From: Massalongia carnosa
Lineage: Eukaryota
Reading direction: 5' to 3'
DNA length: 64,000 bases
Assembly: GCA_965645245.1 (NCBI GenBank)
Contig: OZ287088.1
Coordinates: 248,001 to 312,000 of the forward strand
Shown: positions 2,901-36,431 of the stretch, one piece after another
How the letters are laid out: the number at the start of each line of letters is the position of its first letter
Position numbering within the stretch: position 1 is the first letter of the stretch
Position numbers and translations under genes: made by a program
The notes under the pieces: model-generated
Told to the model about the DNA's origin: nothing
What the model saw: only the letters and a program-made list of their open reading frames with translations
The model's database searches: none

Positions 2901-4247
2901 GATCGATCAACATTCTTACGAGTACATATACCCAGAACTCGGACGAATTTAGGAAAGGTGACAAGCTTGTAATGCAGGATTCACAGTTACAGTTAAACAG
3001 CTGTCAACAGTCGAATGATAAACCATCATTTTTAATCAGTTGTAAAGTTGTTACCACAAGTCTCATTCCTCGAATGTCGCGCGCATCAATTACACTGTTG
3101 CCGTCTCCTTGCCGCAGCTCAAAGAATCTTCGAATCTAACAAGCTCTTCGCGCAGTTCCACTCTGGAGTTTGACCCTGCATCTCAGCCTCAAACATCGGT
3201 TCCGGAACGCAGCTCTGGGAGACAACTACGGAGCGGAACCAAAAACCCTCGTCTACCTTAGTCGATGATGAGAACATTGTCATACCCCTTGACGTCATGT
3301 CCGGTACGCGTGCGAGACCTGTCCAATAGCCCTCCCGTTCTAAGACCTGACAATATGCCAGTTGACGCAGTAGATCAAGCTCCTTGTCGGAGTCATTATC
3401 CTTCAAAGCGGCCTCGAGCTCCGTGTTCAGTTGTCGATTCACTCGCTCTCTCCACTCCTTTCCAGATATGCCATCTACAAAAGGTTCTTCGACAAGCTCT
3501 TCGAACTGTTGTCGGATGGCGACGGCCTGAAACACCGGATTGATTGAACGTTGCGGGAGGGGGGGGAAGAATAAAACAATGGATGATGACTGGTATCGGG
3601 AGTCTCGGAGACCTCGACAAGATCAGAGCATGGAACCTGTACGTTCTCCTGATTGGAAGAGATGGAAGGGCGCGTACCGGATGGGAATTGTTCAATTGAA
3701 CTGGCCATGTCGAAAGGTCTTTGAAGAGGCAGGAAAAAGATGGAAGATTGTCCAGAAATTCAACAATTATACGACTATTTTACATACAAAAGACAACGAA
3801 GATTGGGAGAAATATCCGATGAAAAAAGAGCTTTTATGTTCATTTGGGCCTCTGATAATTTCAACCCCTTTAATTTTGATCTTTTTTGTAGCTAATCGAA
3901 CTACTTTCATTCAAAATCACACTCGTCATCTCACTATAATTGATACCGTCGATCATGAAGCTATTACGAAGAGGTTTTTCGCCTGGGGAGACTCGGAAGG
4001 CATGGGGAAGTCGGATCAAAAAGGGTGGTTGGTTTGAGCTCTGGGCGACCAATTGAAGCAATTCCTTCAGTCCGGGGTTAGATTAATGGCTGAATAAGAG
4101 GCGCCATTAGTTAGATTCATGAAGTTATTCATATCGAAGACGTTGCAGCTGGCGACAGCCAGGTAAATGAAGCAATTTGTTAAAACGGCAACCGATGCCA
4201 AGTACCGAAACCAGCTGACAAAGCAATTTGCATCTACCTCGGCAAGG

Positions 4248-4432
4248 TTGCCTCAGTACCTCAGACGTGCGTGGCTCTATGAGCCGGCTAAGCCCCTCCG
4301 GGTTAGCCTATTTTCGCTAAGCCCCTTCGGGTTAGCGTCGCTAATTCCCTTCGGGTTAGCGGCCCTTTAGCTGACTACGCATGCTACGGGCGGCACGTCT
4401 GAGCGCAAAACTCTGTATTTTTGTCAGATCCG
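4248..4432 (+). repeat. Left terminal inverted repeat of the Academ-like element
   Basis: TTGCCTCAGTACCTCAGACGTGCGTGGCTC... is the reverse complement of the right end; contains three GCTAA...TTAGC hairpin units. Confidence 0.93.
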
Positions 4433-4861
4433 GCTTATTTTGGTGCGCGCTCATACAAATTTTTGGCTTAACCTCAAAAATCATCAAGAATCAAGTTGAC
4501 GGCGGAATCAACAACGCGCAACGACATTTCATAAATTATGTAATAATAGAAATGATGCTTTGATATACATTCTATCGATTAATCAATATTTTAATTACAT
4601 ATCGATGCAAAATTGAGTCGTAATATCGATCTCGCGACGAGGACTCGACTTTGACTCGAAATTTCGACACCACCACAGCAGACTCAACGGGTCACTAGCT
4701 CCAGTTTTTCATTGTCGGCGCTTCTGATCATTAATCTGATCCTCCGAGCGTTGTTTTCGAAAGCCTAAAATCGTTGAATGTGATGAACTTGCTTGATGTT
4801 CGTTTTGCGGGCTAAGAATCCAACTCGCGAATCGTCGAATATCGCTCGCGAACATATCGAA

Positions 4862-5213
4862 ATGGATGATCCTATAGCGTCGATAACTCGCGAGCAGGTG
4901 ACGACCGTGATTTTAAGTAAATTCGGCTTTTATCCAAAGAATGAGCAAGTTGACGCTATCATGACTTTAGCACAAGATCAAAAGGATCTGATATTTATCG
5001 CCAAGACTGGATTTGGAAAGAGTATTATCTTTCAAGCTATGCCATTAATGTTCTCTTGTCTTAAGATCGCTTTAATTATCATGCCTCTCAAGACCTTAGA
5101 AGCTCAACAGTGCAAGAAATTGAGCGTTATCGAGGGATGCAAGCCTTTCGTGTTGGACGGTGATAGTAATAATTCTTCTAATTTAAAGTTAATTCGTGAA
5201 AACAATTATACGC
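4862..5213 (+). pseudogene. RecQ-like SF2 helicase, 5' part (interrupted by LTR retrotransposon)
   Basis: Q-motif region 'FGFYPKNEQVDAI', motif I 'AKTGFGKS', motif Ia 'IIMPLKTL'. Homology stops exactly at the LTR start (5214). Confidence 0.9.
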
Positions 5214-5570
5214 TGTGGAAGGATGAACTGGGTGGTGTGCGTGGTCCACTACTGCTAGGAGTGCAAGAGAACAAACAAACAAGAGAAGAACAGAACAATA
5301 GAATAAGAACAATAGCTAGACTGATCACTGTAAGCCTCGCGCCTCGTGCCTGATGCCTCGTGCCTGTGAACTGTATGTGTTGATGCTATGTGTTGTAGCT
5401 ATTGCTACGAGCATGCTTGCTCTATAAGGAAAAGAACTATCTATAACTAAACTAAAAGAAAGACTGTCACCTGACTTCCCCGCTACCTTTACCGAGTATC
5501 AACCGAAAAGAACCAACTCCCGAACCGCTAGCAATTTGAATTTAGAGTATCACCGCTCCACCCCCCTACA
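5214..5570 (-). repeat. 3' LTR of Gypsy element 1
   Basis: Direct repeat of 13611-13967; adjacent to polypurine tract AAAGAGAGAGGGGAA on the minus strand. Confidence 0.97.
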
Positions 5571-5619
5571 TAGTTCCCCTCTCTCTTTAGGTGTCGACCC
5601 CTGACACCTATCACTGTTC

Positions 5620-6135
5620 CTACTCCAGCGTTCGCTTCATTCCGGCCTCAGCAAACACTAACTCCTCCTCATCCAGCTCGGGTCCCGGAGTCGTATCAAT
5701 GTCATCAGAGATGTGAGGAATAGGCCTGCCATGTGACTCTCGCTTTAACCGAAAAGATGACCTAGTCCCAAAGTCCTCTTCCTCTGCTTTCTTCACATGC
5801 TGAAACATAATAATGGCCTCCTTTAATGTCCGATTCCTCCATTCTCCAACTGCCCGTGACAGTTGGACCATATCCACCTCCTCAATAACATCTTCTCGTT
5901 GAGCTTTGAACTCTTCTTCTTTCATCACCGAGGCCCAGGCATCATTCTGTATGACATAGTCATAATAGTCCACTATGCTATCCCCTAGCATATGCTGAAA
6001 CTCTATTAGCTGCGATTCTATGGTCCTCTGTCCCTCGTATCGGTCTGCTGGGGTCAATGTCTCAAGAAAAGCTAGTGCGTCTGTCATGTGGTGGAAGCGG
6101 TCATTTCCTAGGACAATGACTAATTGGAAAGACAT
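5620..6135 (-). CDS. Additional sense-strand ORF (171 aa, acidic) between integrase and 3' LTR; function unknown
   Basis: ATG-initiated open frame inside the retrotransposon, same strand as gag/pol, ending ~30 nt before the PPT; helical, charged, protein-like composition. Confidence 0.5.
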   Translation of the reverse strand: MSFQLVIVLGNDRFHHMTDALAFLETLTPADRYEGQRTIESQLIEFQHMLGDSIVDYYDYVIQNDAWASVMKEEEFKAQREDVIEEVDMVQLSRAVGEWRNRTLKEAIIMFQHVKKAEEEDFGTRSSFRLKRESHGRPIPHISDDIDTTPGPELDEEELVFAEAGMKRTLE

Positions 6136-6492
6136 GCCAAAAGATGTAAGGCAAGTAAGGTAAGATAAATTGTTCCAAGTTATCGAGTAGCTTGCTGACT
6201 TTCGCTTAGATAAGAAGTTGAGCTTAGCAGAGATGTTTGCTGATAGGAAGATAGTATATGTGCTGATCAGGTAGGTAGTAAAAGCTAGATAATTTGCTGA
6301 GTTCTGGTAGTATGGAAAAGGTAAAACATGGAGGTGAGGATTCGGAAGATGGCAATTTCGACTAAGGTTGGTGAAGTTTTCGGTGAATTTTGGTAAGTGT
6401 GAAATGAAACTATTCCGAAGGTTCGTGTGCTTCCTCCGCTGACAATATGCATTTTACTAAGGAAATTCGTTCGATATAGGTAGTCGGATATG

Positions 6493-9400
6493 TCAATTTT
6501 CCACCGTCTCCATCGCATCAGCACGTCTGCTAGGAATCACTACTGCCATTGGCCAGCCAGGTGGAATCATGGACTGTCGGTCGTCCTCGTCCCCCCCATG
6601 GTTTATAGTCGGCCCCTGACTATTATGTTGCTCAGGTTCTTCTATCGGAGGTAAGTTAATATTTTGCCGAGCATGAAATGGTTTCAGTCGATTTCCTGCA
6701 AAGGTTCCAGCTAATAGGGTGCCGTCTAGTTCACATAGTTTGTAAGTTCCCTTATCAACAATTGTTTGTTGAATTTTATATGGTCCCAACCACCTGAACG
6801 TTAGTTTGCCTGTGTGCTGATTGTCTAATTTAGTGTCGTGCAAAAGAATTAATTGACCCTTGGTGAGTTCAATTGATCTCAGATTGTTCAGAGTGTCAAA
6901 GGTCTCTTTGCCTTCCATTCTTTGTCTTTGCAGGAATAAAGCTGTCTCTTCCATGTCTTCATCCCTTCGCTGTATTTGTCTCGCACGCATAGCTAGCAAT
7001 TCGTCTGTTGTATGAACTTCATTCCATGGTAATATTCTCCATGTTGGAATTTCCAGTTCAATTGGTAGAACAGCCTCATTGCCGCTATTCAGATAGAAAG
7101 GTGTGTTGCCGGTGCTAGCACGAACTGTTGTACGGTCGGCCCATAGTACTGCAGGAAGATTATCAACCCATTTGCCCATGCCTCCATTTGTCATTTTGGA
7201 TAATGCTTGAACAACTGGCCGATGTCCCCGTTCTATCATGCCATTGGCTTGCGGATGATAGGCAGAAACAACTACTCTTTTGATACCATATCGATTTGCT
7301 AATTCGATAACAGCATCTTTGTTTTCTGGTCCACCATCAACAATCAGTTTCCGAAGCACCCATGTCTGCATATAACATCTTCCCACAAGAATCTCGCGAC
7401 ATTCTGAGCGGTAGCTTTTCCTAGTGCTCTACCCTCGACCCATCCGGAAAAGTCATCTCTGGCCATAACAATATAGTGCTTGCCTCGACAAGCTGGCATG
7501 TGGACCACGTCTAAGCCAACCTTCTGCCACATGAAGGTAACCCATGTCGGATGAAGTGCTTCCTCGAGCCTAGTGGGGTCACGTTTCTGACATTCCTCGC
7601 AGGACCGAACATAGCCTTTTACATCATCGTGCAATTGTTCCCACCAGTACCTGTCTGCTATGCGTCTGTATGTGCCCTCTCTGCCTCTATGTCCACTTTC
7701 GTCATGCAGCTGTTTCAATATTTCCAACTTCCGCTCATCGGAGTCTATCACTCTCCTGGAAGGTACGTTCTTGCTGTTTCGTCTATAAAGATGGCCATCT
7801 TGTACTCGATAGCGCAAGGCCTCGCTCTTAAACGCTCTAAACTCTTTGCGGTTTAGTCCAACCGGCTTTTGTAGTGATGTTAGAAATGCAGCGATTCTCT
7901 CGGACTTATCACTATATCCGGCCTTTAGCACTTTTTCGTCTGGCACCTCGTCTGCGGAGTTAACGGAAATTGGACAGGCCCTTAGTGAATTCAGTTCGGC
8001 ATCTATGAAGTCGTCTATGTCTTGCTCCTGCTGTTCGGCCCGAATTTCTTCCTCAGTATGAGGTCGTCTAGACAGTCCATCTGCTGCCGTATGTTTTCGG
8101 CCAGCAACATGTTTGACCTCGAAGTCAAACAGTCGTATCCATGCTATCCATCGGACTATCAGAGCACCAGGCAAATCGGTACAAGCTCCATTCAATTGCG
8201 CCACTAGGACGTTGGCGTCTGTCTCCAACACAAAGTGAACTCCATATAGCCAGTGCCTTGTCTTTTTCAATGCCTTTAGAACGCCTCGACACTCTCGCTT
8301 GGTTGCATCATATCGCTGTTCCACCTCGCTCCATACTCCGCTTTCGTACCGAATGGGGTGACGCTTGCCATCAAAGATTTGCATCAGTACAGCGCCCCAT
8401 CCTTTCAAACTCGCATCCACAGCCAATATGATAAGTCCAGCTAGCTCGCTATAGTCAATGGTCTTTAGTGCTGGCGGAGATGTCAGAGCTATCTTCAGCA
8501 AGTCCATTGCCTCGGTTTGTTCCATGCCCCATACAAAAGCAGCATCTTTCTTCAGCAGACGATATATTGGTTCAGCAACAATGGCAAAGTCCAATATCCA
8601 TATGCGATAGTACACACACACACCTATAAAAGCACGAGCGGAAGAAGCGTCGGTGCATATCGGCCACTCTAGAATTTTGATAACCTTAGCGGTGTCCGGA
8701 TGTCTACCATCGGAGTCGGTCACAAATCCTACTATCTTCAGACCGGCCATGCAAAATTGCGACTTTTCTCCGGAGATAGTGCATCCAGCCCTTTCTATGT
8801 CCGCGAGTACCCCATCTAGCCACATGAGATGTTCAAGCACGTACTTTCTGATGCCCGGTGCCACTTCTTCACCACCATAATCAGTCTTCGGCCCCTTCAC
8901 TCCGATGTCATCAAGGAAAGGTTTAGCACGGTTCGGAATGTGGTCCTGCAGTATCTTTGTCACTACCCGTACGAACTGTGCAACCGAATTGGTAGCTCCC
9001 ATTGGTATAGATGTCATTCGCAATAGTCCTATTGGTGTCATGAAGGCGGTCATGTCTCGACTATGAACATCGAGTTCCATTTGGTCATATCCTGAAAACA
9101 AGTCGATCAAGGAAGCGATGTGGCAGCCAGCAAAGTCCTCTGAGAATTCGTCTACCGAAGGTGGCAGATTTGCGTCTCGGATGGTCACTTTGTTCATGTC
9201 TAGGGCCGCATTAATTAATCGGTACTTATTTTTCTCTTTCTTCTTCACTATGAACCATGGATTTCGATAGGGACCATGACAAGGTTCCAACGTTCCTCGC
9301 TGCAGTCGGTCCTTCAGCATCTCTATCACCATCGGTACCAGGGCCCTTGGCAATGGGAATGATGGGGTCTGCCATGCCTCATGTGGAATAGTGTTGATTT

Positions 9401-10079
9401 TACATGGTGGAGACACCTCAGGTTTGACTCTGCCCATCTCGGAAAACTCCCATGACAGCGCTGCTTCTCGGTTGTATAACATCTGGGTCAACACTTCTTT
9501 CTCAGCAGACGTCATACTGTCGCCCACTGTCATTCGCTGCAGCCGTTCCGGTGTCAATCGTGAGCCTTTGAATATTGTCGAGAACTTTGGAATTAGCCAA
9601 TCAGGGAACTTTTCTGACTTTGGTAGGCCTCTCTCTTTCTCTAGCGCCTTCGCTTTCCAATCTGCTATTCCACCAGGTATGGTGCCATCCGACTGGTCAG
9701 AATTCACTGGTCGAACCTTGACTGCCTTCCGTTTGTATGCCGTATCAACTCTCACACTACTCCGTCGCCCGAACACCCTGTTCTGATTGATCGTGTACAT
9801 GTCGAATTTCCGAGAAAACCTCAGAGCCGAAAGTCCGACCGAGCCAATTGCACGCGACGGTGTGAAGACGCGAACATAGTGGTCCATCGCCGCCTCTTCC
9901 GCACTAGTCGCTGTAGGAGTTAGGGCTATTTGATTTAATAGGCCGGGCCTGTTAAATGGAATGGAAGATTTATTCTCCGATAGTCCAACCCTAAAACTCG
10001 ACACTTTCGCTCTCTCCAGGTTTTTATTACTGCTACCAGCCATGGACCTGTTCTGCACATGGTGGCTAGCTAGTTTAAA
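6493..10079 (-). CDS. pol: Pol (RT, RNase H, integrase) of Gypsy element 1, entered by -1 frameshift; one extra 1-nt frameshift at ~7349
   Basis: RT 'FLDD', RNase H 'VDASLKGWG', integrase HHCC 'HDESGH...CEEC' and core '...IVDGGPEN...HPQANGMIE'. ORFs 7344-10058 and 6493-7386 join if one A is restored in GGAAA(A)CTG. Confidence 0.92.
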
Positions 10080-13000
10080 GTTTCGTCTCGGTTCTCCGGA
10101 AACAGGTCCTCTGCTGTATGGAGTTTGCTACCAGGATCGGAAGTCGCTATGAACTTAGCAGTTCGTTTCCCATCTTCAGCATGTATGGTGCATTCTACCT
10201 CGTTGTTACGGTAGTCCAAGCCCACACGCATCTGGTGAAGATAAGGTTGTCCTAGCACTAGTTGATGGTCCGCAGCATCAATGACAAATATGTGGTTAAG
10301 CGACGCTACTCCGCCAATATCAACCTCCACGTTTTCACACACCCCGAGGAATTCCTTTCTATGTCCGGTATGGGAAATTAGATTGATATTTGGGTAAGGT
10401 CGCATGGCCAGACCCTCGCGCTTAGCGACATCATATGTCATCACGTTCACTTCGGCACCTGAGTCAAGAAGAGACTTATATCGGCCTCCATCACCAACTC
10501 GCACTTTGGCTTTAGGTGTCGACCTTGTATATGCTCTGCGGAGTAGTGGATCCCGAATGCCGATAGAGCCGATTTTTACCGTTGGACCGTCCTGTCTTTC
10601 TGCTTCCGTATTTCGTGTCACTTTGTTAACTACCGATTTAAACATGGGTAACATGGCTATGATATTGCCATTGGTCAGTCCTCCAGTACCAGCTGCTAGC
10701 GATTGCAGATAGCGGCCCTGTATCAAGTCCACGTTGAACTCTCGTCTCGCTATCTTCAGGAATTCTTCTGCACCTATCTTTTCTATGGCGTCTCGAACTT
10801 CTCCACGAATAGGTGCCCTCAGCACTCCGGTACCCGGCTTCTTCTTTCCGCCGCCTTTCCCAGCTAGACCTGCTTCTGTCATTTCCACATCTTCTTCTAT
10901 AGGGTCAGCAAATGTTACCCGAGGTTCTGCCGCGGAAGCTCTGTCGGTTGGTTTTGATTGGTCAAGACTATCATTCCGACGTTCTACCGACGTAGGAAGC
11001 GGACTCCAATTGCCATATCTAGGTGCTTTCGGTACTGCGAAATGGTCCTCGCGCTCAGCCCTGCGTTTCAGAATTCGTTTAGCCGGCTCTTTCCAGTTCT
11101 CCTCAGCAGGTTTATTGTTTTCGGTCCTAGCCGAGTTGATAGAGGTAGTATGTTCGATGATCGTCACCTCCGGGTCCCATTCTTCGTCAGAAGAAAAGTC
11201 ATCTGCACTATCCTCGCCTATTCGAACCGTGTGCACTTCGGCATTTTGTCCAGCTTGACTAAATTGATTGGCCAACATCTTCGCACGTCTAATGGACTCT
11301 TTTTGTGTCACACCCGGTAAATGTCGAATTGGGTTGGAATATGTACCCATCGGTCCCAGACAGAGCAGGCCTTTCTCATTCAGATGGATAACACCATTCC
11401 TTTGGTCAGCGTCGAAGTCTGGACAGTCTCTTCGCCTGTCATGCAGTACCTTCTCTCCACAATAGTTGCAGCTTTCGTCGCTACCATATTGATGGTCATG
11501 CTGTTGTCTCTGTCCGTCATAGGATGACTGTCTATGTGGTGATTGGGAACGGTTCCGACTCTGCTGACTCTGATGACTATTCTGATTGGCCGGTCGCATT
11601 TGAGCTCCGGTGGCAAGGACTAATGCATCGAACTTATTGGTCAGGTCCATGATAGTTTTCTCCGTGGACTTCGATAGGCTAACAGTAGTCGAGTCTGCTA
11701 CTGGTGGACTAAGCGAGTTCATGATATTTTCATGACCGTCTAGCACTATCTTTTTGTCGAACTGGTCGGCTAGAGCACTATATTTATCGGTTACACTCTT
11801 CTCGGTCCGCATCACCTCCTTATATTTCATTCTCGCCTCTACTAGTGTCAGAGTCTTTTTCACCAGTCCATCAAAGTCCTTCATCACATTATCGTCGAAA
11901 TCAACACCTCGGCGAAAGAACAACTCTTCGCGTATGTCAGCAGGAAGACCTTGCATGAACCACTGATTTCGTGTGTAAATGTCTAGCTTCTCTTGACTAA
12001 TTAGGGCTTTGGATATGGCACCGAACTTCCGACAGAAGTTCCGCACATCATCGTCGCTAGTGCGTACTTTGTCCTTGTATGACTCCAGAAACGGTCGAGA
12101 ATTCACCTGCTGAATGCTATCGCCAGCCTTGTACTCTTTCTTCATCACCTTGCTCAGCTGTGTCCATCTTCTCTCCACAAAGTCCGGAAGCGACTCAATG
12201 GTCTGGCCAATTAGCATGTCGCAATAACGGGGCAACCTACGAATCTTCTCATTGTTTCCGACATGATAGTCCTCACACATATCCTCGTACCGACTCAGGA
12301 ACTCCGACACATTTTTACCTTGAAAGAATGGAGTGCCAGGAGTGCCTGGTTGAGGCATGGTCATCACAAATCCAAAGGGTCCAGCGGACATGGCTGGTCT
12401 ATTTCCAAAAGACTCGGGGCTTGTCGACGATGGTGTGGTCATGGTGCTCTCTGCCTCGTGACTAGGTTGACCTTCGGTTGTAGGTATGATAGTCGATGGA
12501 CTATCTCGGCTCGCAGGTGGAGCAGGACTATCAGTTCGCGTACGTGCCTCGTTAGTGTTTCGGACGCTAATGACAAGTTGCTCAAGAAGAGGAATGAGGT
12601 TTGTAACGATTTTTGTCAGCTGTGAGGTAGTTGTTTCTTTGTCGTCAGAGGTTGGGATATGACTACTCGGCTGACAATAGTATGGATGACAATGCGAAAC
12701 AGGATGATGAGTATACGTCTCTCCTGCAGACGAATGACCAATAGGAGCTTGCTTAGTCGGCTCGAAACAATGATATGACAAACAAGGACAAGTATGTGTC
12801 TGGTACGGTGGAGGTAGGTCGAAATGTCTGTGGTGCAGAGGTGCTGGTGCCGCCTCCGTATGCAGACGTTGTCTGTTATAGCAATGCGCTCTGCTTTCTC
12901 TCTCGGTATTGTCAACTGGTGAATAGGAAGTTTGATATGAATTGTACGAATGGGTAGAATGGAATGGCTGCGATATTCTGCCATCGGAGGGAAATGAGGC

Positions 13001-13126
13001 TACTTTTATGTCTACTCCGTGTCGTTTTGTCTCTCGGTTCCCGACGCTGGCTAATCTCCTAGCAGGAATGCGATACCGCTCAGGCCCCATGTCTGTGGGT
13101 ACACTATATTTTTGCCACTGTCGCAC
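10070..13126 (-). CDS. gag: Gag-protease polyprotein (ORF1) of Gypsy element 1
   Basis: 'PGTPFFQGKNVSEFL' gag motif, CCHC-like knuckle 'CNYCGEKVLHDRRRDC', aspartic protease 'LLDSGAEVN'. True start codon uncertain. Confidence 0.9.
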   Translation of the reverse strand: MRQWQKYSVPTDMGPERYRIPARRLASVGNRETKRHGVDIKVASFPSDGRISQPFHSTHSYNSYQTSYSPVDNTERESRAHCYNRQRLHTEAAPAPLHHRHFDLPPPYQTHTCPCLSYHCFEPTKQAPIGHSSAGETYTHHPVSHCHPYYCQPSSHIPTSDDKETTTSQLTKIVTNLIPLLEQLVISVRNTNEARTRTDSPAPPASRDSPSTIIPTTEGQPSHEAESTMTTPSSTSPESFGNRPAMSAGPFGFVMTMPQPGTPGTPFFQGKNVSEFLSRYEDMCEDYHVGNNEKIRRLPRYCDMLIGQTIESLPDFVERRWTQLSKVMKKEYKAGDSIQQVNSRPFLESYKDKVRTSDDDVRNFCRKFGAISKALISQEKLDIYTRNQWFMQGLPADIREELFFRRGVDFDDNVMKDFDGLVKKTLTLVEARMKYKEVMRTEKSVTDKYSALADQFDKKIVLDGHENIMNSLSPPVADSTTVSLSKSTEKTIMDLTNKFDALVLATGAQMRPANQNSHQSQQSRNRSQSPHRQSSYDGQRQQHDHQYGSDESCNYCGEKVLHDRRRDCPDFDADQRNGVIHLNEKGLLCLGPMGTYSNPIRHLPGVTQKESIRRAKMLANQFSQAGQNAEVHTVRIGEDSADDFSSDEEWDPEVTIIEHTTSINSARTENNKPAEENWKEPAKRILKRRAEREDHFAVPKAPRYGNWSPLPTSVERRNDSLDQSKPTDRASAAEPRVTFADPIEEDVEMTEAGLAGKGGGKKKPGTGVLRAPIRGEVRDAIEKIGAEEFLKIARREFNVDLIQGRYLQSLAAGTGGLTNGNIIAMLPMFKSVVNKVTRNTEAERQDGPTVKIGSIGIRDPLLRRAYTRSTPKAKVRVGDGGRYKSLLDSGAEVNVMTYDVAKREGLAMRPYPNINLISHTGHRKEFLGVCENVEVDIGGVASLNHIFVIDAADHQLVLGQPYLHQMRVGLDYRNNEVECTIHAEDGKRTAKFIATSDPGSKLHTAEDLFPENRDETLN

Positions 13127-13610
13127 TCACGCCGTCGCTAAATCATTGAGGCATTCGCTAAATGTGGCGATGTTCTCAAACGGGATTAGTCTGTCGACTT
13201 CAACTGCCGAGTCGCAATTCCGAGGCTCCTGATTGGTCCGGTCCGTAATGCCGTCACTTTTCCGTCTGTCTTCGTCTCGATGTCAATTCTTTTAGTACCT
13301 AGACCGTCTCCACCGTGTCGCAAGCAGTATGGGGTCGTCCCGTCGCTATGTCCGAGTCCGCGCGTTCTTGAGAGGTCTAGGGTCAAATGGATGCCCCCGT
13401 TCTTTCTGTCTTTCTCCGGTCACTGTATGTCGTTTTTCCACTATCTCTAGATATCTGTACGCTGTCGCTGCTTCCTGTCGCTGTTTCCTGTCGCTATTTC
13501 CTGTCGCTGTCGCTGTCGCTGTAAGTCTACTGTCTGTCTCACATGTCTGTCTAGACTCGTCGTTTGATTCCTGCTCCCGGTCAAATAGAGATCGCACCGT
13601 GGTCGCCAAA

Positions 13611-13967
13611 TGTGGAAGGATGAACTGGGTGGTGTGCGTGGTCCACTACTGCTAGGAGTGCAAGAGAACAAACAAACAAGAGAAGAACAGAACAATAGAA
13701 TAAGAACAATAGCTAGACTGATCACTGTAAGCCTCGCGCCTCGTGCCTGATGCCTCGTGCCTGTGAACTGTATGTGTTGATGCTATGTGTTGTAGCTATT
13801 GCTACGAGCATGCTTGCTCTATAAGGAAAAGAACTATCTATAACTAAACTAAAAGAAAGACTGTCACCTGACTTCCCCGCTACCTTTACCGAGTATCAAC
13901 CGAAAAGAACCAACTCCCGAACCGCTAGCAATTTGAATTTAGAGTATCACCGCTCCACCCCCCTACA
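13611..13967 (-). repeat. 5' LTR of Gypsy element 1
   Basis: Direct repeat of 5214-5570; followed on the minus strand by TT then TGGCGACCACGG (tRNA-type primer binding site). Confidence 0.97.
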
Positions 13968-13971
13968 ACGC

Positions 13972-15795
13972 ATGGTGTGTATTCAAATTATGATTGAGAT
14001 AAATATAAAAACTTACTCGTTAATATGAATAGTTTTTACTAGCCCAGAGATAGCGACGTCAAAGCTGTTTAATCAGGAGGTTCTGAGGCATCCAAGTTTC
14101 TTCTTGAATTTATGTCTTTTAGCTCTTGATGAGATGCATCTTGTATCCGAATGGCGAGATTTCCGGCCCGAATACTTCAATCTCGGTGTGCTTCGTACAC
14201 GATTACCAGATGGTATTCCTTTTCTGGGTGCGTCTGCAACGCTGGATCCAAGAACCCTAGAGAGCGTTAAAGATCGCTGTGGCTTTGATAACGAAAGTAC
14301 TGTTATTCAAACAGCGCTTGATCGTCCAGAGATATACATACAGACAAGCAGTCTACAGCGGCCTATGAACAGCATGATCGATCTTCAACATCTTTTACCA
14401 ACACGGGCTGAGAGTCCTTTTGATATTCCGAAAACGATTATCTTCATGGATTCAATTTCATCTATCAAAAAGGCGTGTGCGCTAATGAAAGTATGGATGA
14501 ATCAATTGTCCTATCCAATTGAGGCTGCTAGTTGGGTCGCGCCTTTCTTTTCCGACATGGCCACCCAAGACAAAGAAAGGATTGCGGCTCGCTTCGAAAT
14601 GCCCTCGAATCAATGTAAATTTCCTCGAATCCTGATCGCAACGGATGCATACGGGCTTGGTATTGATAATCCAGACGTTATGAGAGTTACGCAATGGCTG
14701 CTACCCTCGTCAATGGCGAAGCTATACCAACGTTTAGGTCGTGCTTTGCGTTGCGGTCGAGGACAGGCGCATTTTACTCTTTTGCATCCTTCTTGGTGCA
14801 TGGGTCCAAGAAGCGGATCAAAAATGGACGAACAGGACGGATATGACGCGGGAATCGAGATTGAATCCAAGGCCAGTAAACGCCGCATCAATCAAAAGGA
14901 TGCTGATCGGCGACGAGATATGCCACCGGGTCTTTGGGAGATAATCAATGTGCCTTCAGATGGTTGCGTTCGAGGTATTGGCTTGAATTTCTTCAATGAT
15001 AAAGTGTATCCAACGTCGGCCTATGTTAAGCCGCAACCTTGCTGTTCAATTTGCGATCCAAGTTTTCAGACATCAACAGCCGCCAATGAGATGTTAAATA
15101 GAACGGCCGAGCGTGACTCGTCTAGGCGGCCTTGGTTCACCCTTAAACTTCGAGAATGGAGGGAGGCCAAGGCGCAGGAAAAGTTCCCAAATTCACATAT
15201 GCGATACTTCCCATCATTGATAATGCCCGATGAGGTACTGAATTCTTTGACCACTTGGGCGGATCAGATTGTGGACGAGCCCACCATGCGGCGATGGATT
15301 GGTAACACATGGACTGGTATTAGGCCCTACGGCGCCGAGCTTTTAGAAATTTTAAAGCGGGGTCAAGCAATGAGATTAGACGAGGGAGACATGTTCGAGG
15401 AATGGAAACGACACAACGACATAAAGAGAAAACGATTACCCAGCCTAACATGCAACTCCGCCAGTATTGAATTTGAGGAACGGAGGAAAAACTGGATGAT
15501 CAAACAAGGATATATGTCGAGAAAGGTTTTTAAAAAGCGAAATGCGGTCAAGAAGAAAGTCTCGAAGGAAAGCGAGAGCACGGAGCCATCGGGCGAGAAT
15601 CCTGCGCCTAATCACAATATCTCCGATGCGGCGCTCGTTGTTGACAATGTTGATGCTCTTAAATCATCGATGAAGGCATCAAAGACCAAAAAAGCGCCTC
15701 GAGATCCTATGGAAGCGTTGTCGCTGAATGTACCCATGGCCCTTCCTCCGACACGATCTAGACAAGAAAGAAAGTGCCCCGTCCGCTACCTCTGA
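13972..15795 (+). pseudogene. RecQ-like SF2 helicase, 3' part
   Basis: Removing the Gypsy and intron 13975-14032 restores 'NNYTHVFTSPEIA'. Then DEMH (II), SAT (III), 'ATDAYGLGID' (V), 'QRLGRALR' (VI), a Cys cluster 'C.R...CCSIC' and an HRDC-like 'KLREWRE...PSLIMPDEVL'. Confidence 0.9.
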
Positions 15796-15854
15796 CTCTG
15801 TAAAGCCGCGCGGCGCGGATTTACATGACTAGGCTATCTCGTGGTATCGATGAT

Positions 15855-18533
15855 TTAATCAAAAAACATACCGCCGGATATCTCGAGACGGGCCATTGAA
15901 ATGACAGGGCTGTCGGGGACCTGCTTTGTTTCATTGACAAAATCGGGCTCGGCTTCATACTTACCCTCAAGGTCGTCTGTTGAAATTTCTTTTGAAATTT
16001 CTTCGGAAAGATACTGCTGATTGTATTTTAATACATTTTCTCCAAGTTTCTTCAATCCCTCAACATAAAGATTAGCTGTTGGATTAGTTGAAAATCGATC
16101 ATAGCTTCTTTTACAGAGTGATTTATGCGCTAGTGCCGTAGCCATGCCCCACACATCCTCTGCGGCCGATTTTGCTGGATGCCTTGAAGAGTTGACTCTT
16201 CCAAAGTAAAACTCAACGATTTCTTTGAGCTTCATAAGATATGGACCGTTGAGTGCCCAGTTCTCGAGCAAGGTGTCACTATACTTTGAAAAATAAGATC
16301 GCTCGTGCTGGAACGTCTTGAGGTTATTGTTTAGTATCTCTAAAAGCCGATCAGTCTCAAAACTCGACTCTTCGTCACCGCGTAAATTGACAAGACTATT
16401 CATTAAAATACTTTCCTGTAGCCTTATGGTCGCTGCGGAAGAATCAATCGCATGAAGGGTGTATAGAAGAGCTTGCGCATATTTCGGGGTGCCAGCTACG
16501 CTTGCCTGAAAGATCACCGTTGCGTGGCGCAATGCGTGACGAAGTAGTCCAATATCCGCATATTTGATTGCGTATCGAAGTGTTAGATACGATTCAACGT
16601 GATCACAGAAGTTCTGATGATTCTGAAATTGTTGATCAAGCGTTGGAGGAAGCATATCTATTGACGTTGAGGGTAATTCCGCGTGAAGTTTGCGAGATAT
16701 CCTGCCCAACATATTCATCCAGGTGCCATCCTGCCCGCAAGTCTGCGCTGTGAGCCACGAAATAGTTGCTTCGATTCGCTGCGGAGCATATCCATCCTTT
16801 CGTAAAAACCTAATCCACGTCCCAACGATTCTAGCTTGATAGCTCTGAATGATCAGATCCTCTAAGGCCTGGAAATCGTTCGGCTGCACGACACGAGCGC
16901 GGCCCCACCGATCGGCGGCATATTGAAGAGTCGAAGGATCAACCGGCTGGGCCTCTCCCCAATGTATTTTATGAATAAGCTGCAGCATGTTAAAGCGAAG
17001 ATGCCATAACCCTAATCCCGGTAAAATCCAGTCGAACCGATCGAAAGATTGCTCCGATATCCCACGACGTAATTCCTTGACAGATTGCATTCTCGACCAT
17101 GTCTTGAGGTCACCATAGATAAGCCGAATGACGCTCGCAAACGTCGAGTCATCCTCCTTGAACTTGAACTGTCGCACAAATATATCCTCCAATATTTGAA
17201 TATTATTAGATGTTGTGCTCTCATCCTTCATGACTGGTTTGATAGGAATGTAATTGGTCTTGTATTTTTTCATCTTATTCAGCACGGGCATTGCAGTCGA
17301 CCAAGGAAGTTGAACGTCGCCGATCTCTGGGCCATAAAGCGCTCGAATCGCTGACTCTAGATGATGAAGACGAATCTAGGTACGCGGTGCATTAGCGATT
17401 GAGCGCGGTATATACACCTCGTCCTGTATTGAACTCACCTGCATCTCGAGATCACCAGTCTCCAGCTTTCGCGCAATTCTTTCAGCTGATAAAAGATGCG
17501 TGGCTGGGCGCCACATATCCTGCCTCAAAGCGCCGGCATCGAATCCTTGCCCCTGGAAAATTAGAGCGGTAGTGATTGATCTGACGTCTCTATTATCCCC
17601 CGTGCGCTCTCCTCGTTTACCTTCTGCGAAGTCAAAGTTATCGTATGTCAAGATCATGTTTGAGCCTTGTCCTAGCATCTGAACCTTTCGTTCGGCCTCC
17701 TTAATCAAGGACAACATGCGCCGCTGCAGGGTAGTATATGACATCGTCAGGTCAAAATGACAGAGTGTATCTAGAACTCGCCGCCTCGCCCCACCTTGAT
17801 AAATATAAAGGCCTAAGACGGACTGAATATTGGTCGCCTTATTTGGTCGCAATTTGTGACAAAGCATTGCCAATATAACGGTGTGCCGGCCGCTGGGAGA
17901 ATCCAACGTCACATCGAGAGGTTCCTGCGGGCGAGCCTCGCGACAAACACTATCAATTAGCTCAAGCCATCGTGGCGCCAACTGCTTGGCGGCAGATGCA
18001 GCAAGTTTAATAGCCTCCAAGGTCCCAAACTCGACTGTCGCAGAGGGCGGCTGGAAAGGGCCAAAGGCTGCGTGATCTGCCAAAGCTTTGATTTCTTCAC
18101 GAAGCACATCCGCGGCCCAAACCCATCCTCTCTCGCGAAGGATAGTGGATATTCTACCAGGCCCAATGAGGCTTGAAAAGTCTTCTTGCCGCACAATATC
18201 GACATAGACAAAATCGAAGAGCTGGCCTTGCGCCTTTCGCATACTATGACGGGCTCGATTCTTACAAAGTGTTGATAAAAAATCTTTTACCGACCAATTT
18301 AGAGAGCTCAGAAATTTAAGCACCTCAACCAGCTTGTCGTAATCTGATATGCGCCGGCGGTGGCGTTTCGCGCCTCCATTTTTTTCAGGTAAGGCAGGAG
18401 GGGAGGAGGAAGAGGGTGAGCTATCATTACTGCCTGACGGCGATGGGTGGGGCCGCTTGAGCGCACCGGCGGGAGTCAAGGGACTTGTCCGTAGGTCGGT
18501 AAGTGGCGAGGAGGGGCCCCCGACAAGAGCCAT
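15855..18533 (-). CDS. Putative DDE transposase of the Academ-like element (DUF6589-like), 2 exons, 871 aa
   Basis: Exons 18533-17439 and 17375-15855 join in frame across a GT-AG intron at 17438-17376 with a GCTAAT branch site. Motifs 'LTYDNFDF', 'YGDLKT', 'GLWHLRFN', 'ETDRLLEILN' give candidate D-D-(H)-E residues. Lies inside the TIRs; no stops. Confidence 0.8.
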
Positions 18534-18874
18534 GGCTTTCGTCAGATAGCTTCAATCTAGATAAATCATACAATACCATTGATTGGCCGTCGTTATTCAT
18601 ATCATCATGATCTTTGTAACTCAATGTAATCGCGCCACATGAAAATAATCAGTTCATCAACCTCAAAATTGAGCGAAAGCGAACAATTTATCACTTAATC
18701 GACTTTCACATCGCTTTTCTTAGCCTGACAGTAGTTATAACACATGATTATCGAGTCGTCCATCTTGAGAGGTGCGTTTTTGGTATAAAATACAGTCTCT
18801 GATAAACTAATACGACCCTAATCATTGTATTAAATCCATAAAAGGAATGGTTGCACTGCTAATATTTTTATTAT

Positions 18875-19032
18875 GCGGATCTGGCCGTAATTTTGAGTTT
18901 TGCGCTCAGACGTGCTATCGCACTGATGTTAGTCAGCAGCGACGCTAACCCGAAGGGGCTTAGCGAAAATAGGCTAACCCGGAGGGGCTTAGCCGGCTCA
19001 TTGAGCCACGCACGTCTGAGGTACTGAGGCAA
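18875..19032 (-). repeat. Right terminal inverted repeat of the Academ-like element
   Basis: ...GAGCCACGCACGTCTGAGGTACTGAGGCAA followed immediately by the TSD CGGCAAGG; contains two GCTAA...TTAGC hairpin units. Confidence 0.93.
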
Positions 19033-19934
19033 CGGCAAGGAAAAGCTTGTGGCGGTGGCAAATTTGTATGAAGTCAGAAATCGCATCGGAAGCGGGAACC
19101 GATAAGATGGAAATGGAAGCTTCTGGAATCGCTGGTGGACGGGCATAAATAGGAGCAGTTTTACGCTACGTAGTGATAGAAAGTCAATCGTTTCTCCCAG
19201 TTTGTTTTGCATGTGCAAGAACTCGTTTGTCGAACTAGTCATATCAATTACCCAGTGCTACCATTCCGCCTGTTGCAGTCACAGTTCCAACACAATTCTA
19301 GTGTTTTAAGTAGTTGTGGTTGACGAACTAGTGGTGGGTTACGTTATCTTTGTTTAATTTTAGATTCTCTTATCATATAATTCTTATTTCTCAAATCTTC
19401 GGATTTTTTTGACTTCCTCTATGTCAGGGTCCTAGCCTGACATAAGGCTGAGATGGAAGGAGGGATCACGGGAGCACGCGAGGCTAGCGCGACACTCGGT
19501 GCAGATATTTCTAGCGAGTCGCGCACAATGATTCTTTTCTTCTTTGTAGATAAATTTTGGTTTAATAGCGGTTGATCAGAATCGACGACAGCTTCCTTAC
19601 ACTATTTATCTACCTACCTATTAGTATTCTTTCTTCTAACGCGCACAATGATTCTTTTCTTCTTTGTAGATAAATTTTGGTTTAATAGCGGTTGATTAGA
19701 ATCGACGACAGCTTCCTTACAGAATTTATCTACCTATCTATTAGTATTCTTTCTTCCAGAACTTCCAGTAGGGACGAGGTCCCGTTCCAGCAACTTTCTT
19801 CCAGATAGGGTGAAAACCCGTTCCAGTAACTTTCCAAACTGATCGTTTGTGCGAATCCAAACCGATCCAAATTCCAGAACTTCCAGAACTTTTAGAATCA
19901 GGGAATCAAGCTTTCCCATTTTCAGAATCCAGTC

Positions 19935-21581
19935 ATGAGCTCAAAAACGCCCATGACGGCGAGAAAGGCCGTAGCCCCTCCCGCAGAGGCCCAGACCGGC
20001 CTAGCATTTCACACCCGCGCTCGTTCCGTCTCCCGTCATTCATCTCGTTCGGATAGCAGCATGCCGGGAACATTTCAAGACTCCGAATTACCTCAGAACG
20101 AACAGATTAAAGAAACCACGGAGGGGACGTGGGAAAAACCCCCAGGAGCAGGACGTGAAAAAGAAAAGGAGTTTTTTCAGAAGATCGATGTCTCCGATCA
20201 TCCATATTACGAGAAGAATGCCGCAGAACATCCGTCCCACGTTGCAGCACACAATTTGAAGGATTTGCAGAGCATCTTGCGTGACGAGAAAGAAGGACCC
20301 CGATGGTATGAGTTCCTCGCGAGAGCGCTCGAATACGACAAGACCCTATTCAACAAATACATCTCCTTGCAGGGCGACCTGGAGAAGCTTGGCGAGGCCA
20401 AAAAGATCAACAGACGTTACAAACAAGTACATGAACGTCTCATCGCGGAAAAAGACGATGCCGAACGAGAGGCCATTCTCGCGCAAGAAGAACTATCGCA
20501 TAGAGATATCGAATTGGAGACAATGACTATAGTAAAAGAGAGATTACAGAAAGACAGAGACTCCCTGATCCGCCAGTTAGCGGAAACACGGGAAACACCA
20601 CGTCATCAACGAGAAGATACCGTTACTACCCAAAGCACCAACGCTAACCCCTAGAATTGGCGACCCCGTGGTATAAACCCTAGCAAGCCACTTAAAGGTG
20701 AGGACTCGGAGGAGTATAGCCCTTGGGCGTACTCCGTCCGCAATAAACTGAAGACAGACGCACCCCTCTACGCCGATGAGAACGAAAAGGTCGGTTACGC
20801 GCTGTCTCAAATGGAAGCGCCGATCTTCGGGGCTATGCACTCTTGGATAGCGGATATGGGAGACTCACTATCGGCCGACGCTTTATTCGAAGAGATAGAG
20901 CACTATATGGGCATTCACCTCCAGAGCCGCGACGCCAAGAAAGAACTCCTCACCGTCACCATGAAAGGGGGCGAAAGCGTCAGCGAGTATTATCACCGAA
21001 TCTTCAAGCTATGGCAGAAAGCCCAAACTCCCGTTGATGAGCGAATGGAGAAGTTCCTCGTGACGTTAAAGCCTAGCATCTCCAACTCTCTTATGGGTTC
21101 AGTCTTTACTGATTTCCGCCCTTTACTTGACGAAGCACGAAGAATCGAAGACCGCCGCAAAGATGTGGCGCACCACTTTCCTCGTCCCGATAAACCAGCC
21201 GCAACGAAGAATTCCAGCCAACGAAGCAACTTCTCCGGCGGAAAATCCTCAACCAAGTCCTCCTGCGGAAAGTCCGCCTCATCCTCCATCAATCAAACCA
21301 GCTCCAAGAAATCTGATGATCGGCCGAATGCGAAGCTGATGCCAACGATAGTCAAACCGGCCGGTTGGGTAGGCACCTGGTACGATCCAGACCCAAACCC
21401 AAAGAAGCTGAAGGATGACGAAAGTGAGTCCCTCTCCCGTCAACGCCGATTCTGGGCATGCAGGGGATCAGGACATCGAGGAAACGATACCATTTGTCCT
21501 CAATACAGGAACAAGAACCTGAGCCCCACGAGGACAGTAGAAACAGATTCGGGAGCGGAATCTGAGGCGGGAAAAGCCTAG
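19935..21581 (+). pseudogene. gag: gag of Gypsy element 2 (disrupted near 20650)
   Basis: Coiled-coil N-terminus; retrotransposon gag motif 'MKGGESVSEYYHRIFKLW'; degenerate knuckle 'FWACRGSGHRGNDTIC'. Confidence 0.8.
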
Positions 21582-24500
21582 TCCTTGATCGAAATCGCGA
21601 TCAGGGGCGTGTAAACAAGGAGGTTGTTAATGGGAACGGTGACACTGAAATGAAAATGGTTAGGGTCTCTACTTGTGCTGTCCGCGATACTGAAAAGAAA
21701 ACCGAGGACAAACATTTAGTTTTTAAAACTAGCATAGCTGGAATTAAAACCCGTTTACTTATCGATAATGGAAGTGAAGCTGAACTCATTGACGAATCCT
21801 TTGTGCGTAAACAGAAATTGAACACCTTCAAACTGGATAAGAAGGTGAAACTTACTTTGGGAAATGGAGAGGTGGTACAGCTCCTCTCGAAGGCCGTCTT
21901 GATCGACGTGAAAATCGGAGATCACGAAGAGCAAGTCTTATGTTATTTGGCAAAACTAGAAGCGTATGCAGTCATTTTAGGGGATGGATGGCTGCAAACG
22001 CACAACCCAATGATCAATTGGAAAGAGAGAACGATGAAGTTCAACTCATCAGATTGTCTTGAAAAGGGATGTCTTGCACGGGGGATAACTTACACCGAAT
22101 TCGCTGTGGGAAGCAAGGTTAAGAATAGGATCGAGCCTAAAGAAGACATCGAAGTCCTTCCAGTCAACGCAAAACACTTCTTCCGAATGGCCAGAAAGCA
22201 GGATCACAACGGATACCTATGGATTCCCCGAGAAACAAAGAAGGCCTTGCGCGCAACTACCACCGGCGCAGTGACATCAGGAGATTACGACAAGTTCATG
22301 AAGGGAAAACCGGAATACACCCGAGAGGAGTTGTTGAAGAGAGTTCCAGCAGCTTATCACAGCGTAATAGATGTTTTCATGAAGCACAAGGCAGATGAAC
22401 TGCCTGAACATCGGAAGGAAGATCATCAGATAAACCTCGAGGCAGGAAAAGAAGCTCCGTACGTAAGGAACTATAAACCCATGTCAGATCAAGACCTAGA
22501 AGCGGTTAAGAAATACATTGATGAGCATCTGGGAAAGGGCTTCATCCGTCCTAGTTCTTCAAGCGCAGCAGCCCCCGTTCTTCTAGTTAGAAAACCAGGG
22601 GGTGGTATAAGATTCTGCGTGGATTATAGAGCCTTGAACTCCATTACGATCAAGAACAGATATCCAATACCGTTGATAAATGAAACATTGGGAAACCTAT
22701 CACAGGCCAAGAAGTTCACGAAACTCGATGTGATTATCGCGTTCAATCGTATGAGAATGAAAGAAGGTCACGAGTGGCTCACGGCTTTCAATACTAGATA
22801 TGGTCAGTTCGAATATCTGGTGATGCTATTCGGCCTTTGCAACGCTCCAGGAAATTTTCAAACTTTCATCAACGACACAGTCAGAGAATACTTAGACGTT
22901 TCCTGCACGGCGTACTTGGACGACGTCCTAATTTACAGCGAAAATGAAGAAGAGCATTCCGAACAAGTGCTAAAAGTCCTAACTCGATTGAAAGAGAAAG
23001 GACTGCAAGTGGACATAGACAAATGCGAATTCTCTTTGACGGAGGTAAAGTATCTTGGATTGATAGTTACCACCGATGGAATAAAAATGGACTCGGAGAA
23101 AGTTGAGGCGATTCTGAAATGGGAGACCCCAGGCTCCTTAAAAGACGTGCAAGCATTTTTAGGCTTTGCGAATTTTTATCGACGATTTATATCGAGATTT
23201 TCGCAACGGACGAGATCGTTAACAGAGTTAACAAAAGGCGAACAGATAACGACGAAATCAGGAAAGAAACGAACCAAGTATAATTCGTTCGTCTGGTCTG
23301 AAGATTGTCAAAAGGCCTCCGAAGATTTAAAAATTGCGTTCACCACCGCTCCCGTCTTAGCACATTACGATCCGGCCCTGGAAACATGGGTCGAGACTGA
23401 CTCTTCAGATTTCGTCAGCGCCGGAGTACTCTCTCAAATGCACGATGGAGTACTGAAACCGGTAGCCTATTTTTCCAAGAAGATGACCCCTACCGAGTGT
23501 AACTATATGATTTATGATAAGGAACTCCTCGCTATTGTAAAGAGCTTCGAAGTCTAGCGCCCCGAGGTTGCAAGTGCTGCTCCTGATAAACCTGTTGAAG
23601 TATACACCGATCACAAGAACTTAGAGCATTTCATGACCACAAAGCAGCTGAACAGAAGACAAGCCAGATGGGCCGAATTTTTCTCCGAATTTAATTTCAA
23701 GATAATATATCGACCGGGGAAGCAAGGAGAGAAACCGGACACGCTGACCCGACGCTCTCAAGATCTCCCGAAAGGATTCGAAGATATCAGAGAACAAAAT
23801 AAATTTCAAACGTTGTTGCAGGAGCATCAATTAGATGACGATATACGTAAAGCGTTAACAGTTGTGTTCTGCGCGAACACAGCAGGCGACGACGATCATG
23901 ATAACGAGCAAGACGATCGAAGCGAAATCACTGAGGAAGACGCAACGGAATCAGAAGAACCCAACGCAGAACATATATCAGGGACCGATGAGACCGAGAA
24001 CTCGATAACGAAGACTTTAGAGGAACTAATCGAAGAAGCTTACGAAAGAGATGAAACGGTACAAGACATAATAGCGGCAAAGAAAAAGGGATCGAGAAAA
24101 CTCCCATTGAATCTCATCGAAAGATGAATAAAGTTAGAAATGGGGGACCTCAAAATAGAGAACGACAATTTGTATGTCAAAGGAAGACTATACGTACCAA
24201 ATCACGAGTCACTGCAGTTATATTTACTGCAAAAGCACCACGAACCACCATTACAGGGCCATCCAGGATACAAGAGTATGTATCAAAGAATAAGAGAAAA
24301 TTACTTCTGGTTCGAAATGAAAGAGCATCGCAAGAGATACGCAGTTAACTGTTCCATATGTCGAAGATCAAAAGCATACAACGACAAAAAGCAAGGTCTC
24401 TTGAACCATCTTCCGATCCCGAACAGAAAATGGATGGACGTATCGTTGGACTTCGCTGAATTTCTACCAGAATGCCGAAGACGAAACAGAGTCTATCAAC

Positions 24501-24836
24501 ACATATTAGTGATAGTAGATCGTTTAACGAAAAGACGATTATATGAACCACTAACCTCTCTCTCCACTGACGAACTGATGGACGCAATGTCCAGAAGATT
24601 ATTCTCCTCCTACGGATTTCCTATATCAACAGTCAACGATCGCGGTAGTCAACTAACCGCTCACCTTTGGAAAAGAGGTTGCGAAAGATACGGTGTTAAA
24701 ATAAAGTTCTCTTCCGCACATCACCCCGAAACAGACGGTCAAATCGAAAACGCCAACAAGGTAATGAAGAACTACCTTCGAGCATACGTAAGTTATACAC
24801 AAGACAATTGGGTGGATTATCTCTCGGACGCCGACA
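21569..24836 (+). pseudogene. pol: pol of Gypsy element 2 (in-frame stops, truncated in integrase)
   Basis: ORFs 21650-23557, 23633-24127 and 24140-24841 share one frame, separated by single stops; motifs 'RFCVDYRALN', 'YLDD', 'ETDSSD', 'HPETDGQ'. Confidence 0.92.
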
Positions 24837-34096: not shown

Positions 34097-34120
34097 GTGG
34101 TAGAAGTAGTAGTAATAGTA

Positions 34121-36378: not shown

Positions 36379-36431
36379 TAGTAGTATGAATAGACGAGGA
36401 TTTTTCAGAATGCGGGGCTAAGCTAAATCAG

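Follow-up and report, generated by a model that had tools for sequence, protein, structure and literature searches.

The transposon at 4248-19032 of the window, by which we mean the whole 64,000-nucleotide stretch analysed here, has hairpin ends that are real and conserved in a known kind of element, and scars in the genome suggest a mechanism that would be new if confirmed. Each end comprises a 12-13-nt tip and a conserved fold-back closed by CTCAGRC/GYCTGAG. Judging from sequence comparisons, we lean towards these ends serving a P-element-like staggered cut-and-paste reaction, in which the two strands would be cut 107-154 nt apart, the DNA between the cuts melted by a helicase and the resulting tails folded.

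The element is a young AcademH-like cut-and-paste transposon of about 6 kb when uninterrupted. It encodes a RecQ-like helicase and a DDE transposase with DUF6589, which we take to be the Academ transposase domain. In the window it is flanked by the 8-bp target-site duplication (TSD) CGGCAAGG and contains the following features.

4240-4247, + strand: left target-site duplication, 8 bp, from pair comparison
4862-5213, + strand: 5' part of the RecQ-like helicase gene, with the start of the DEAD domain and Walker A, cut off by the retrotransposon
5214-13967, - strand: Ty3/gypsy-type LTR retrotransposon with identical 357-bp LTRs, within the helicase gene and foreign to the element
14029-15795, + strand: main exon of the RecQ-like helicase, with DEMH and Helicase_C (RecQ/WRN E ~1e-16)
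15855-18533, - strand: DUF6589 transposase in two reading frames, with an inferred short intron near 17373-17430
19033-19040, + strand: right target-site duplication, 8 bp, from pair comparison

Uninterrupted copies measured ~6.0 kb, and at least 30 copies in the element's own genome were 97-100% identical over the full query. Matches to the 18-nt terminus numbered 302 in this genome, versus 0 for the reversed control, and 252 distinct ends were examined. Its families are F1 (the window element), F2 and F3 (transposase ~61-65% identical or derived) and M (680-bp, non-coding). Of 24 left/right pairs from this genome, 17 had an 8-bp TSD; among 66 same-locus pairs the TSD was 8 bp in 41, 7 bp in one, 9 bp in one and absent in 23. 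Because the passages of PMC10045372 give AcademH TSDs as 9-10 bp, longer than the usual 8 bp here, we file the element as an AcademH-like variant rather than a strict AcademH member. In family F2 there is a third gene, whose product has a PhyH domain of the 2-oxoglutarate/Fe dioxygenase-like kind (E 2e-8; L091:7612-8706 on the - strand and L107:2747-4138), and a hAT-type transposase lies within an F2 copy, beside a nested MITE (L091:1234-3243). Elsewhere in the window, another gag-pol region of the Ty3/gypsy-like kind, interrupted by in-frame stops, lies just right of the element (19896-24841), tandem arrays of 126-bp and 99-bp units occupy 25180-26235 and 42416-43260, and further TIR-bounded elements, several of them abutting, occur at 28724-28852, 34113-36386, 36432-38384, 38383-41177 and 52370-54190. 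At 50721-50809, two 41-bp arms form a perfect inverted repeat around a 7-nt loop; a near-identical arm follows a shortened end in L020.

The transposase matched DUF6589 with E 3e-62 (Pfam), and this was the only Pfam family matched in the 892-aa protein at E<=0.1, with neither THAP nor any HUH family among the matches. It keeps D298, D475, H511 and E732, numbered along the 892-aa read-through from L075; D298, D475 and E732 were present in 24/26, 56/59 and 56/56 alignment rows, respectively. The structural model (pLDDT 91) has an RNase H/transposase fold and predicts a helical insertion; transposases of the P element superfamily have a GTP-binding insertion domain. Its nearest structure was the P transposase (Z 10.5, rmsd 6.0, 284 aligned, ~10% identity), a moderate structural score just 1.5 Z above Hermes (9.0), with ISCth4 (8.5) and Tn5 (8.1) following; a Ty3-TFIIIB structure was also among the comparison results. 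An earlier model without the first strands gave the same ranking with lower scores, and Foldseek returned no match for the transposase model at E<=0.001. Because it has the DDE triad and the RNase H/transposase fold and matched no HUH family, the transposase is a DDE enzyme and not an HUH enzyme. Its named protein relatives belong to lichen-forming fungi. A metagenome scan yielded 80 related loci with transposases 24-55% identical to that of the window, and helicase matches were present in 25 of these loci.

The ends of the window copy are built as follows, position 0 being the start of the inner heptamer.

4248-4259, + strand: left tip, 12 unpaired nt, containing the first CCTCAG copy
4260-4270, + strand: outer arm of the closing stem, the conserved heptamer CTCAGAC plus the end-specific extension GTGC
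4273-4285, + strand: small 5-bp hairpin, GGCTC-TAT-GAGCC, with the sole TIR mismatch (4278) in its loop
4287-4360, + strand: three YTAA-N11-TTAR units, each with a 5-bp stem, 2-nt bulge, 3-bp stem and 3-nt loop
4372-4378, + strand: TGACTAC, a one-mismatch Yap1/AP-1-like motif that ends 18 nt before the inner heptamer
4393-4403, + strand: inner arm of the closing stem; the bond between 4396 and 4397 (GCAC/GTCTGAG) is position 0
18905-18915, - strand: inner arm of the right closing stem; position 0 is the bond between 18911 and 18912
18929-18935, - strand: TGACTAA (Yap1/AP-1 motif), which ends 17 nt before the right inner heptamer
18938-19032, - strand: right 95-bp TIR with two units, the small hairpin, the outer arm (19010-19020) and the 12-nt tip

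The first-pass annotation had drawn much of this architecture, and its details held. Segments 4260-4270 and 4393-4403 form a perfect 11-bp inverted pair, as do 18905-18915 and 19010-19020; the small hairpin and the left stem-loop units (4287-4307, 4316-4336 and 4340-4360) lie exactly where it placed them, and the right end does have two units. It was also correct that the single mismatch of the 95-bp TIR falls in a loop, which is weak evidence for folding since ~1/3 of the bases are unpaired (54/156). The comparison with shuffled sequences that it called for, under DNA and RNA parameters, agreed with folding: with DNA parameters the left end reached -43.4 kcal/mol (z -5.9) and the right end -37.2 (z -5.2), and with RNA parameters the values were -78.2 (z -4.9) and -63.8 (z -4.7), z-scores that are inflated because each end is a tandem array of short palindromes. 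None of 200 shuffled controls was as stable in any of these four folds. The 95-bp TIR is specific to the subfamily of the window. Copies carry 1-4 hairpin units, and the units of the F2 and F3 left ends (F2L and F3L) have lost the inner 3-bp stem (0/3 pairs) with a spacer that is still 11 nt. We infer that the bond between 4396 and 4397 is where the non-transferred strand is nicked.

The closing stem, formed by CTCAGRC and an end-specific extension, is lineage-wide. At least 64 ends from the 80 metagenome loci had the terminus TTRCCTCAG-N2-5-CTCAGRC, and in 53 of these 64, a non-independent set drawn from few families and samples, 9 or more of the first 10 stem positions paired with an inner arm (shuffles, 116/3200). 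Across 22 end types, a mean of 3.64 of the four bases after the heptamer paired with the end's own inner arm, compared to 1.53 with swapped arms. The 14 distinct extension 4-mers paired at 49/56 positions, a value reached by 0/100,000 permutations, with the best inner heptamer chosen where several existed. One extension position covaries, being G-C in F1, C-G in F2L and F3L, and T-A in the old M left end. Identity stops directly after the heptamer in 4/8 left/right pairs, and each end keeps its own 9-18-bp stem; closing stems extend up to 20 bp among the distant ends listed. The spacing of the heptamers varies from ~47 to 142 nt, and distant families with unrelated inner sequences still fold (bottom-strand z -0.6 to -12.5). 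Where distant relatives share the same termini, a 9-bp TSD was exact in 4 and had one mismatch in 5 of the 14 informative pairs listed; a generic TIR and TSD scan of 55 of the 80 loci gave mainly noise.

Stem covariation, proposed at first pass as a check across family copies, depends on the level of comparison. Compensation is plain between end types, subfamilies and distant relatives. Among near-identical copies, stems are hit as often as loops, which is one half of the pattern that the first-pass annotation named as refuting, the other half being a lack of compensation: substitutions affected 71/786 paired positions (0.090/nt) versus 46/490 unpaired ones (0.094/nt; p = 0.45), and shared substitutions were split between 9 paired and 9 unpaired (p = 0.22). 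We read the single-copy changes, which make up 99 of the 117 substitutions, as post-insertion damage. Apparent C-G to T-A 'compensations' in RIP-like copies (e.g., L190/L186/L219) were discounted. The commonest left end of the M (MITE) family has a G-A mismatch in its stem, yet is widespread, which, like the unspared stems, counts against a long stagger. No bias in strand folding was found, the strand predicted to be carried along folding better in only 14/23 end types, another point against it. CTNCG exceeds CGNAG by 28 to 7, mainly in the near lineage.

Scars in the genome peak at the start of the inner heptamer. The distance between the tip and position 0 varies with end type, from 107 to 154 nt, and 137 of the 252 ends stop matching their reference within 540 nt. 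Among these shortened ends, 29 have their breakpoint no more than 2 nt from position 0, and in 14 of the 29 it falls exactly at 0. Such breakpoints occur in 7/8 end types, the exception being the right-end type of the window (F1R), with none within 2 nt of 0; this counts against a long stagger. Breakpoint density per nt was 5.8 at -2..+2, 0.23 at +3..+15 and 2.15 at -15..-3, a tail toward the tip, and the distribution on either side of position 0 was strongly asymmetric (40 versus 3, p = 3e-9), with few breakpoints past it. Most of these scars are left ends joined to right ends; there are 34 such left-right fusions, in which 67/68 ends stop at or before +2, in a search that could detect partner breakpoints up to +60 only. 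One end lies in -2..+2 in 24/34 fusions, and the 28 distinct junctions mainly have 0-5 nt of overlap. Only 1/34 fusions comes from the subfamily of the window, a further point against a long stagger. Six junction coordinates recur twice, so that some of these mini-elements may have moved; same-junction pairs differ at 2-13 sites, which favours, and does not prove, independent origins. The TSD was exact in 12 of 23 short two-ended elements, a set in which three are mis-mapped (L116, L122 and L130), and we therefore prefer the count of 34 fusions. This fusion pattern is as expected for end-joining of two long 3' donor tails, with one tip kept and the other trimmed.

The scar data come, like the motif data below, from one genome. 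The 80 metagenome loci yielded no left-right fusion and only one truncation at -2. Short P-like footprints (at least 9 nt of each tip within 48 nt) gave 0 matches. Contigs from 4/21 runs, compared with a full copy, contained no inner-heptamer joint, a neutral result as contigs drop rare variants. Interiors starting at the heptamer without a hairpin gave 5 pattern matches, comprising 2 nested insertions, 2 point variants and 1 genuine case (L295). In L295 / L300, an old non-coding copy starts exactly at the inner heptamer, with an unrelated flank and no TSD. Other rearrangements include a complete left end joined head-to-tail to 110 nt of a right end, the TSD lying beyond the outer right end (L015:1685-1795, - strand end), and a copy with the same host sequence, inverted, over at least 160 nt of both flanks (L292; G000:C7:1894529-1901075), as from a fold-back or TIR template switch. 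An element starting CACGCG..GACAAAA is repeatedly inserted into ends near -13..0 (L120, L133, L144, L253 and L276).

Insertion 17-18 nt from a Yap1/AP-1-like motif is a strong result in the element's own genome and is independent of the cut model. In 206 collapsed flanks, TKASTMA occurs 53 times within 130 nt, and 34 of these occurrences end 17-18 nt short of the TSD. It was found at this gap in 21/168 unclustered flanks, where eight control gaps gave 0-1. Of 51 TSD-validated insertions, 22 had it on one side and none on both. TKASTMA was spotted by eye before testing, so that its p-value is not blind. The variant TKACAAA, chosen after the TKASTMA test, peaked at the same gap (6/18, p = 2e-7). 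It is a variant of the Yap1 site, and TGACAAA is a Yap1 response element in the motif list of PMC6545440, a review of Yap factors. The window insertion has this form of the motif.

4216-4222, + strand: target-side motif TGACAAA, which ends 17 nt before the TSD (motif list of PMC6545440)

The motif also lies inside the ends: with one mismatch allowed, it precedes position 0 in 9/9 end references from this genome, by 17 nt in right ends and 18 nt in left ends. The left-end form TKACTAC was not enriched at targets (0/10). In distant relatives, the Yap1-like motif was absent at that gap in 13/14 end types, which counts against a long stagger, and one end type has TTTGTCA at gap 16; inspection by eye of 42 flanks revealed no target motif. 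From its sequence, the Yap1-like motif may be read by a host bZIP factor or by the transposase itself.

Targets are also reused. Outer flanks cluster (60/232 in 19 groups), and 13/252 ends lie within another end. Three complete nested insertions (L093, L256 and L259) have the TSD GTCTGAGN and are joined at 0 and +8, an arrangement that can be explained by targeting alone. Distant relatives likewise show end-in-end insertions (L170:2475-2586, with joints at 0 and +8; L208, L216 and L228). The same target position in repeated host sequence holds different members or orientations in L010/L140, L114/L145, L038/L132/L281 and L006/L053/L267, which reflects either hot spots or element replacement, and insertions lie 1 bp apart in L007/L012 and L016/L022. 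We rejected the idea of structured targets: 73 rebuilt empty sites, a set that contained cross-matched pairs, folded no better than 236 flank windows (p = 0.52).

The long staggered cut that we favour would proceed by enzymatic steps that we deduce from the conserved pairing, breakpoint edge, motif geometry, DDE fold and helicase observed here. The transposase would nick each end twice, the transferred strand at its tip and the opposite strand 107-154 nt further in, at position 0. A protein at the Yap1-like motif, be it a host bZIP factor or the transposase itself, would place the inner nick. The RecQ-like helicase would melt the duplex between both nicks; helicases of the RecQ family have 3'-5' polarity. 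Both freed strands would fold, which would hinder re-annealing and protect the tails. Folding would also make the >100-nt tail a compact end with a 12-19-nt 3' tail, near the 17-nt tail of P. The 3' ends would then attack the target 8 bp apart, often adjoining a Yap1-like motif, and host polymerase would fill the long gaps at the new site, where slippage of hairpin units could give rise to the 1-4 units. At the donor, the two leftover 3' tails would be end-joined into left-right footprints of 160-300 bp between the old TSDs or, alternatively, prime gap repair from another copy. Long single-stranded tails would explain why the element has its own helicase. That all parts coexist, i.e., a DDE enzyme cutting strands more than 100 nt apart, melting by a self-encoded helicase, folded tails as the integration substrate, and one Yap1-motif factor setting both cut and target, seems a realistic prospect that falls slightly short of probable. 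The factor would possibly be a host oxidative-stress bZIP protein.

Two other readings were weighed. In one, the main rival, which we regard as rather unlikely, an ordinary short-stagger cut-and-paste reaction would be followed by aborted gap repair: synthesis from both flanks would stall or release at the inner heptamer, where transposase is bound or the nascent strand folds back, and joining of the ends would follow. The pairing, though genuine, would arise and persist through template switching on repair intermediates, and the helicase would serve repair. P, Ac/Ds and Mutator elements often give rise to internally deleted copies through aborted repair, which speaks for this reading, and the occupation of the same target by different family members (L010/L140, L114/L145 and L038/L132/L281) fits templated repair or hot spots; gains and losses of hairpin units and the absence of a strand bias suit it as well. 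However, the polymerase would need to get past both outer CCTCAG sites as well as the Yap1-like motif, yet halt at one bond in 7 end types. Release by fold-back should peak at +3..+7, where there are almost no events; short tracts were not found, and the coincidence of the targeting geometry with the breakpoint is left unexplained. The other reading, the fallback of the first-pass annotation, takes the ends as purely double-stranded protein-binding arrays (CTCAGRC heptamers, YTAA-N10/11-TTAR dyads and a bZIP motif) with folding as a by-product. It is partly true, in that the dyads hold a 10-11-nt spacer, kept at 11 in F2L and F3L when the inner stem is lost, a Yap1-like motif is present inside the hairpin, and substitutions do not spare stems. 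As a full account it is improbable, since the extension differs between ends and families and pairs within each (3.64 versus 1.53 of 4), one position undergoes transversion swaps among G-C, C-G and T-A, stems reach 20 bp, the heptamers are spaced anywhere from ~47 to 142 nt, and distant ends without common inner sequence still fold.

The first-pass annotation had itself suggested a single-stranded, cruciform or replicative step, or a small structured RNA made from the termini. Part of this is supported: pairing within each end is conserved and covaries, and the scars point to a single-stranded phase at the ends. In a replicative or peel-and-paste route, peeling of one strand by the helicase or extrusion of a cruciform would leave the donor intact, in the manner of HUH hairpin readers. 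Such a route could draw on the structured ends, the helicase and the at least 30 near-identical copies. It is nevertheless very improbable given the DDE triad and RNase H fold, the lack of an HUH family match, the clean 8-bp TSDs, and the many left-right remnants between TSDs, apparent donor-site footprints which imply that the interior leaves the donor; a rolling step is unsupported on the same grounds. We give least credence, next to none, to the ends templating a small structured RNA, regulatory or guide-like. Although the ends fold well as RNA and the top strand of the units carries C-UNCG-G loops, Rfam gave 0 matches at E<=1, folding is alike for the two ends and for the two strands, the TCC/GGA variant suits the 3-nt-loop register better than the UUCG register, and the scars are DNA-level events, leaving this idea with no positive support.

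The favoured long-stagger reading names a specific bond (GCAC/GTCTGAG), a job for the helicase and a role for the hairpins, and offers a mechanism-level reading of DUF6589. If true, it would extend the P-element stagger ~tenfold and have a DDE enzyme work on structure-defined single-stranded ends; if one motif-bound factor sets both cut and target, insertions would be steered beside stress-response elements. Apart from any cut model, motif-linked insertion bears on how fungal transposons may rewire stress-response promoters.

Several known systems share parts of this picture. HUH hairpin readers (IS200/IS605 and Helitron) conserve the structure and not the sequence of their ends, and Helitrons encode a helicase; the element described here differs in having a DDE enzyme, TIRs, a variable 8-bp TSD and a RecQ-like SF2 helicase. 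In factor-tethered integration, Ty3 inserts at TFIIIB and Tf1 at promoters. The element described here resembles these retrotransposons in inserting a set distance away from a DNA-binding site, but it is a DNA transposon and its candidate site is a Yap1/AP-1-like motif. AcademH elements, a lineage of the Academ superfamily, likewise occur in fungi and have TIRs, a transposase of the DDE fold and a helicase encoded in a gene of its own (PMC10045372, PMC10799480); the families of this genome differ in their 8-bp TSD, while distant relatives show 9 bp as AcademH does (PMC10045372). The AcademH passages of both papers make no mention of fold-back ends, left-right footprints or Yap1-like targeting. 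Nor did the titles and abstract openings surveyed in the open literature refer to hairpin ends, footprints or bZIP targeting in Academ; Kojima 2020 may mention end structure. KolobokH is likewise a fungal DDE transposon encoding a RecQ helicase, but Kolobok duplicates TTAA rather than 8 variable bp (PMC9587614). The passages on AcademH and KolobokH offer no explanation of the role of the RecQ helicase in these DDE transposons.

The P element, described in the passages of PMC7776569, offers the best structural match (Z 10.5), an 8-bp TSD and internal inverted repeats, and differs in its N-terminal THAP domain, which was not matched here (Pfam). The P transposase cleaves the 3' end right at the tip but the opposite strand 17 bp further in, so that 3' extensions of 17 nt remain; the transferred strand folds back and pairs again, and a bZIP factor and the Bloom helicase act in repair of the donor (PMC7776569). 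On the favoured reading, a staggered cut with 3' tails, a refolded transferred strand and a host bZIP protein at the ends would be common to both, the cut in the present element being deduced from scars. The P stagger is 17 nt and P encodes no helicase (PMC7776569), whereas the element described here would have a stagger of 107-154 nt and carries a helicase of its own.
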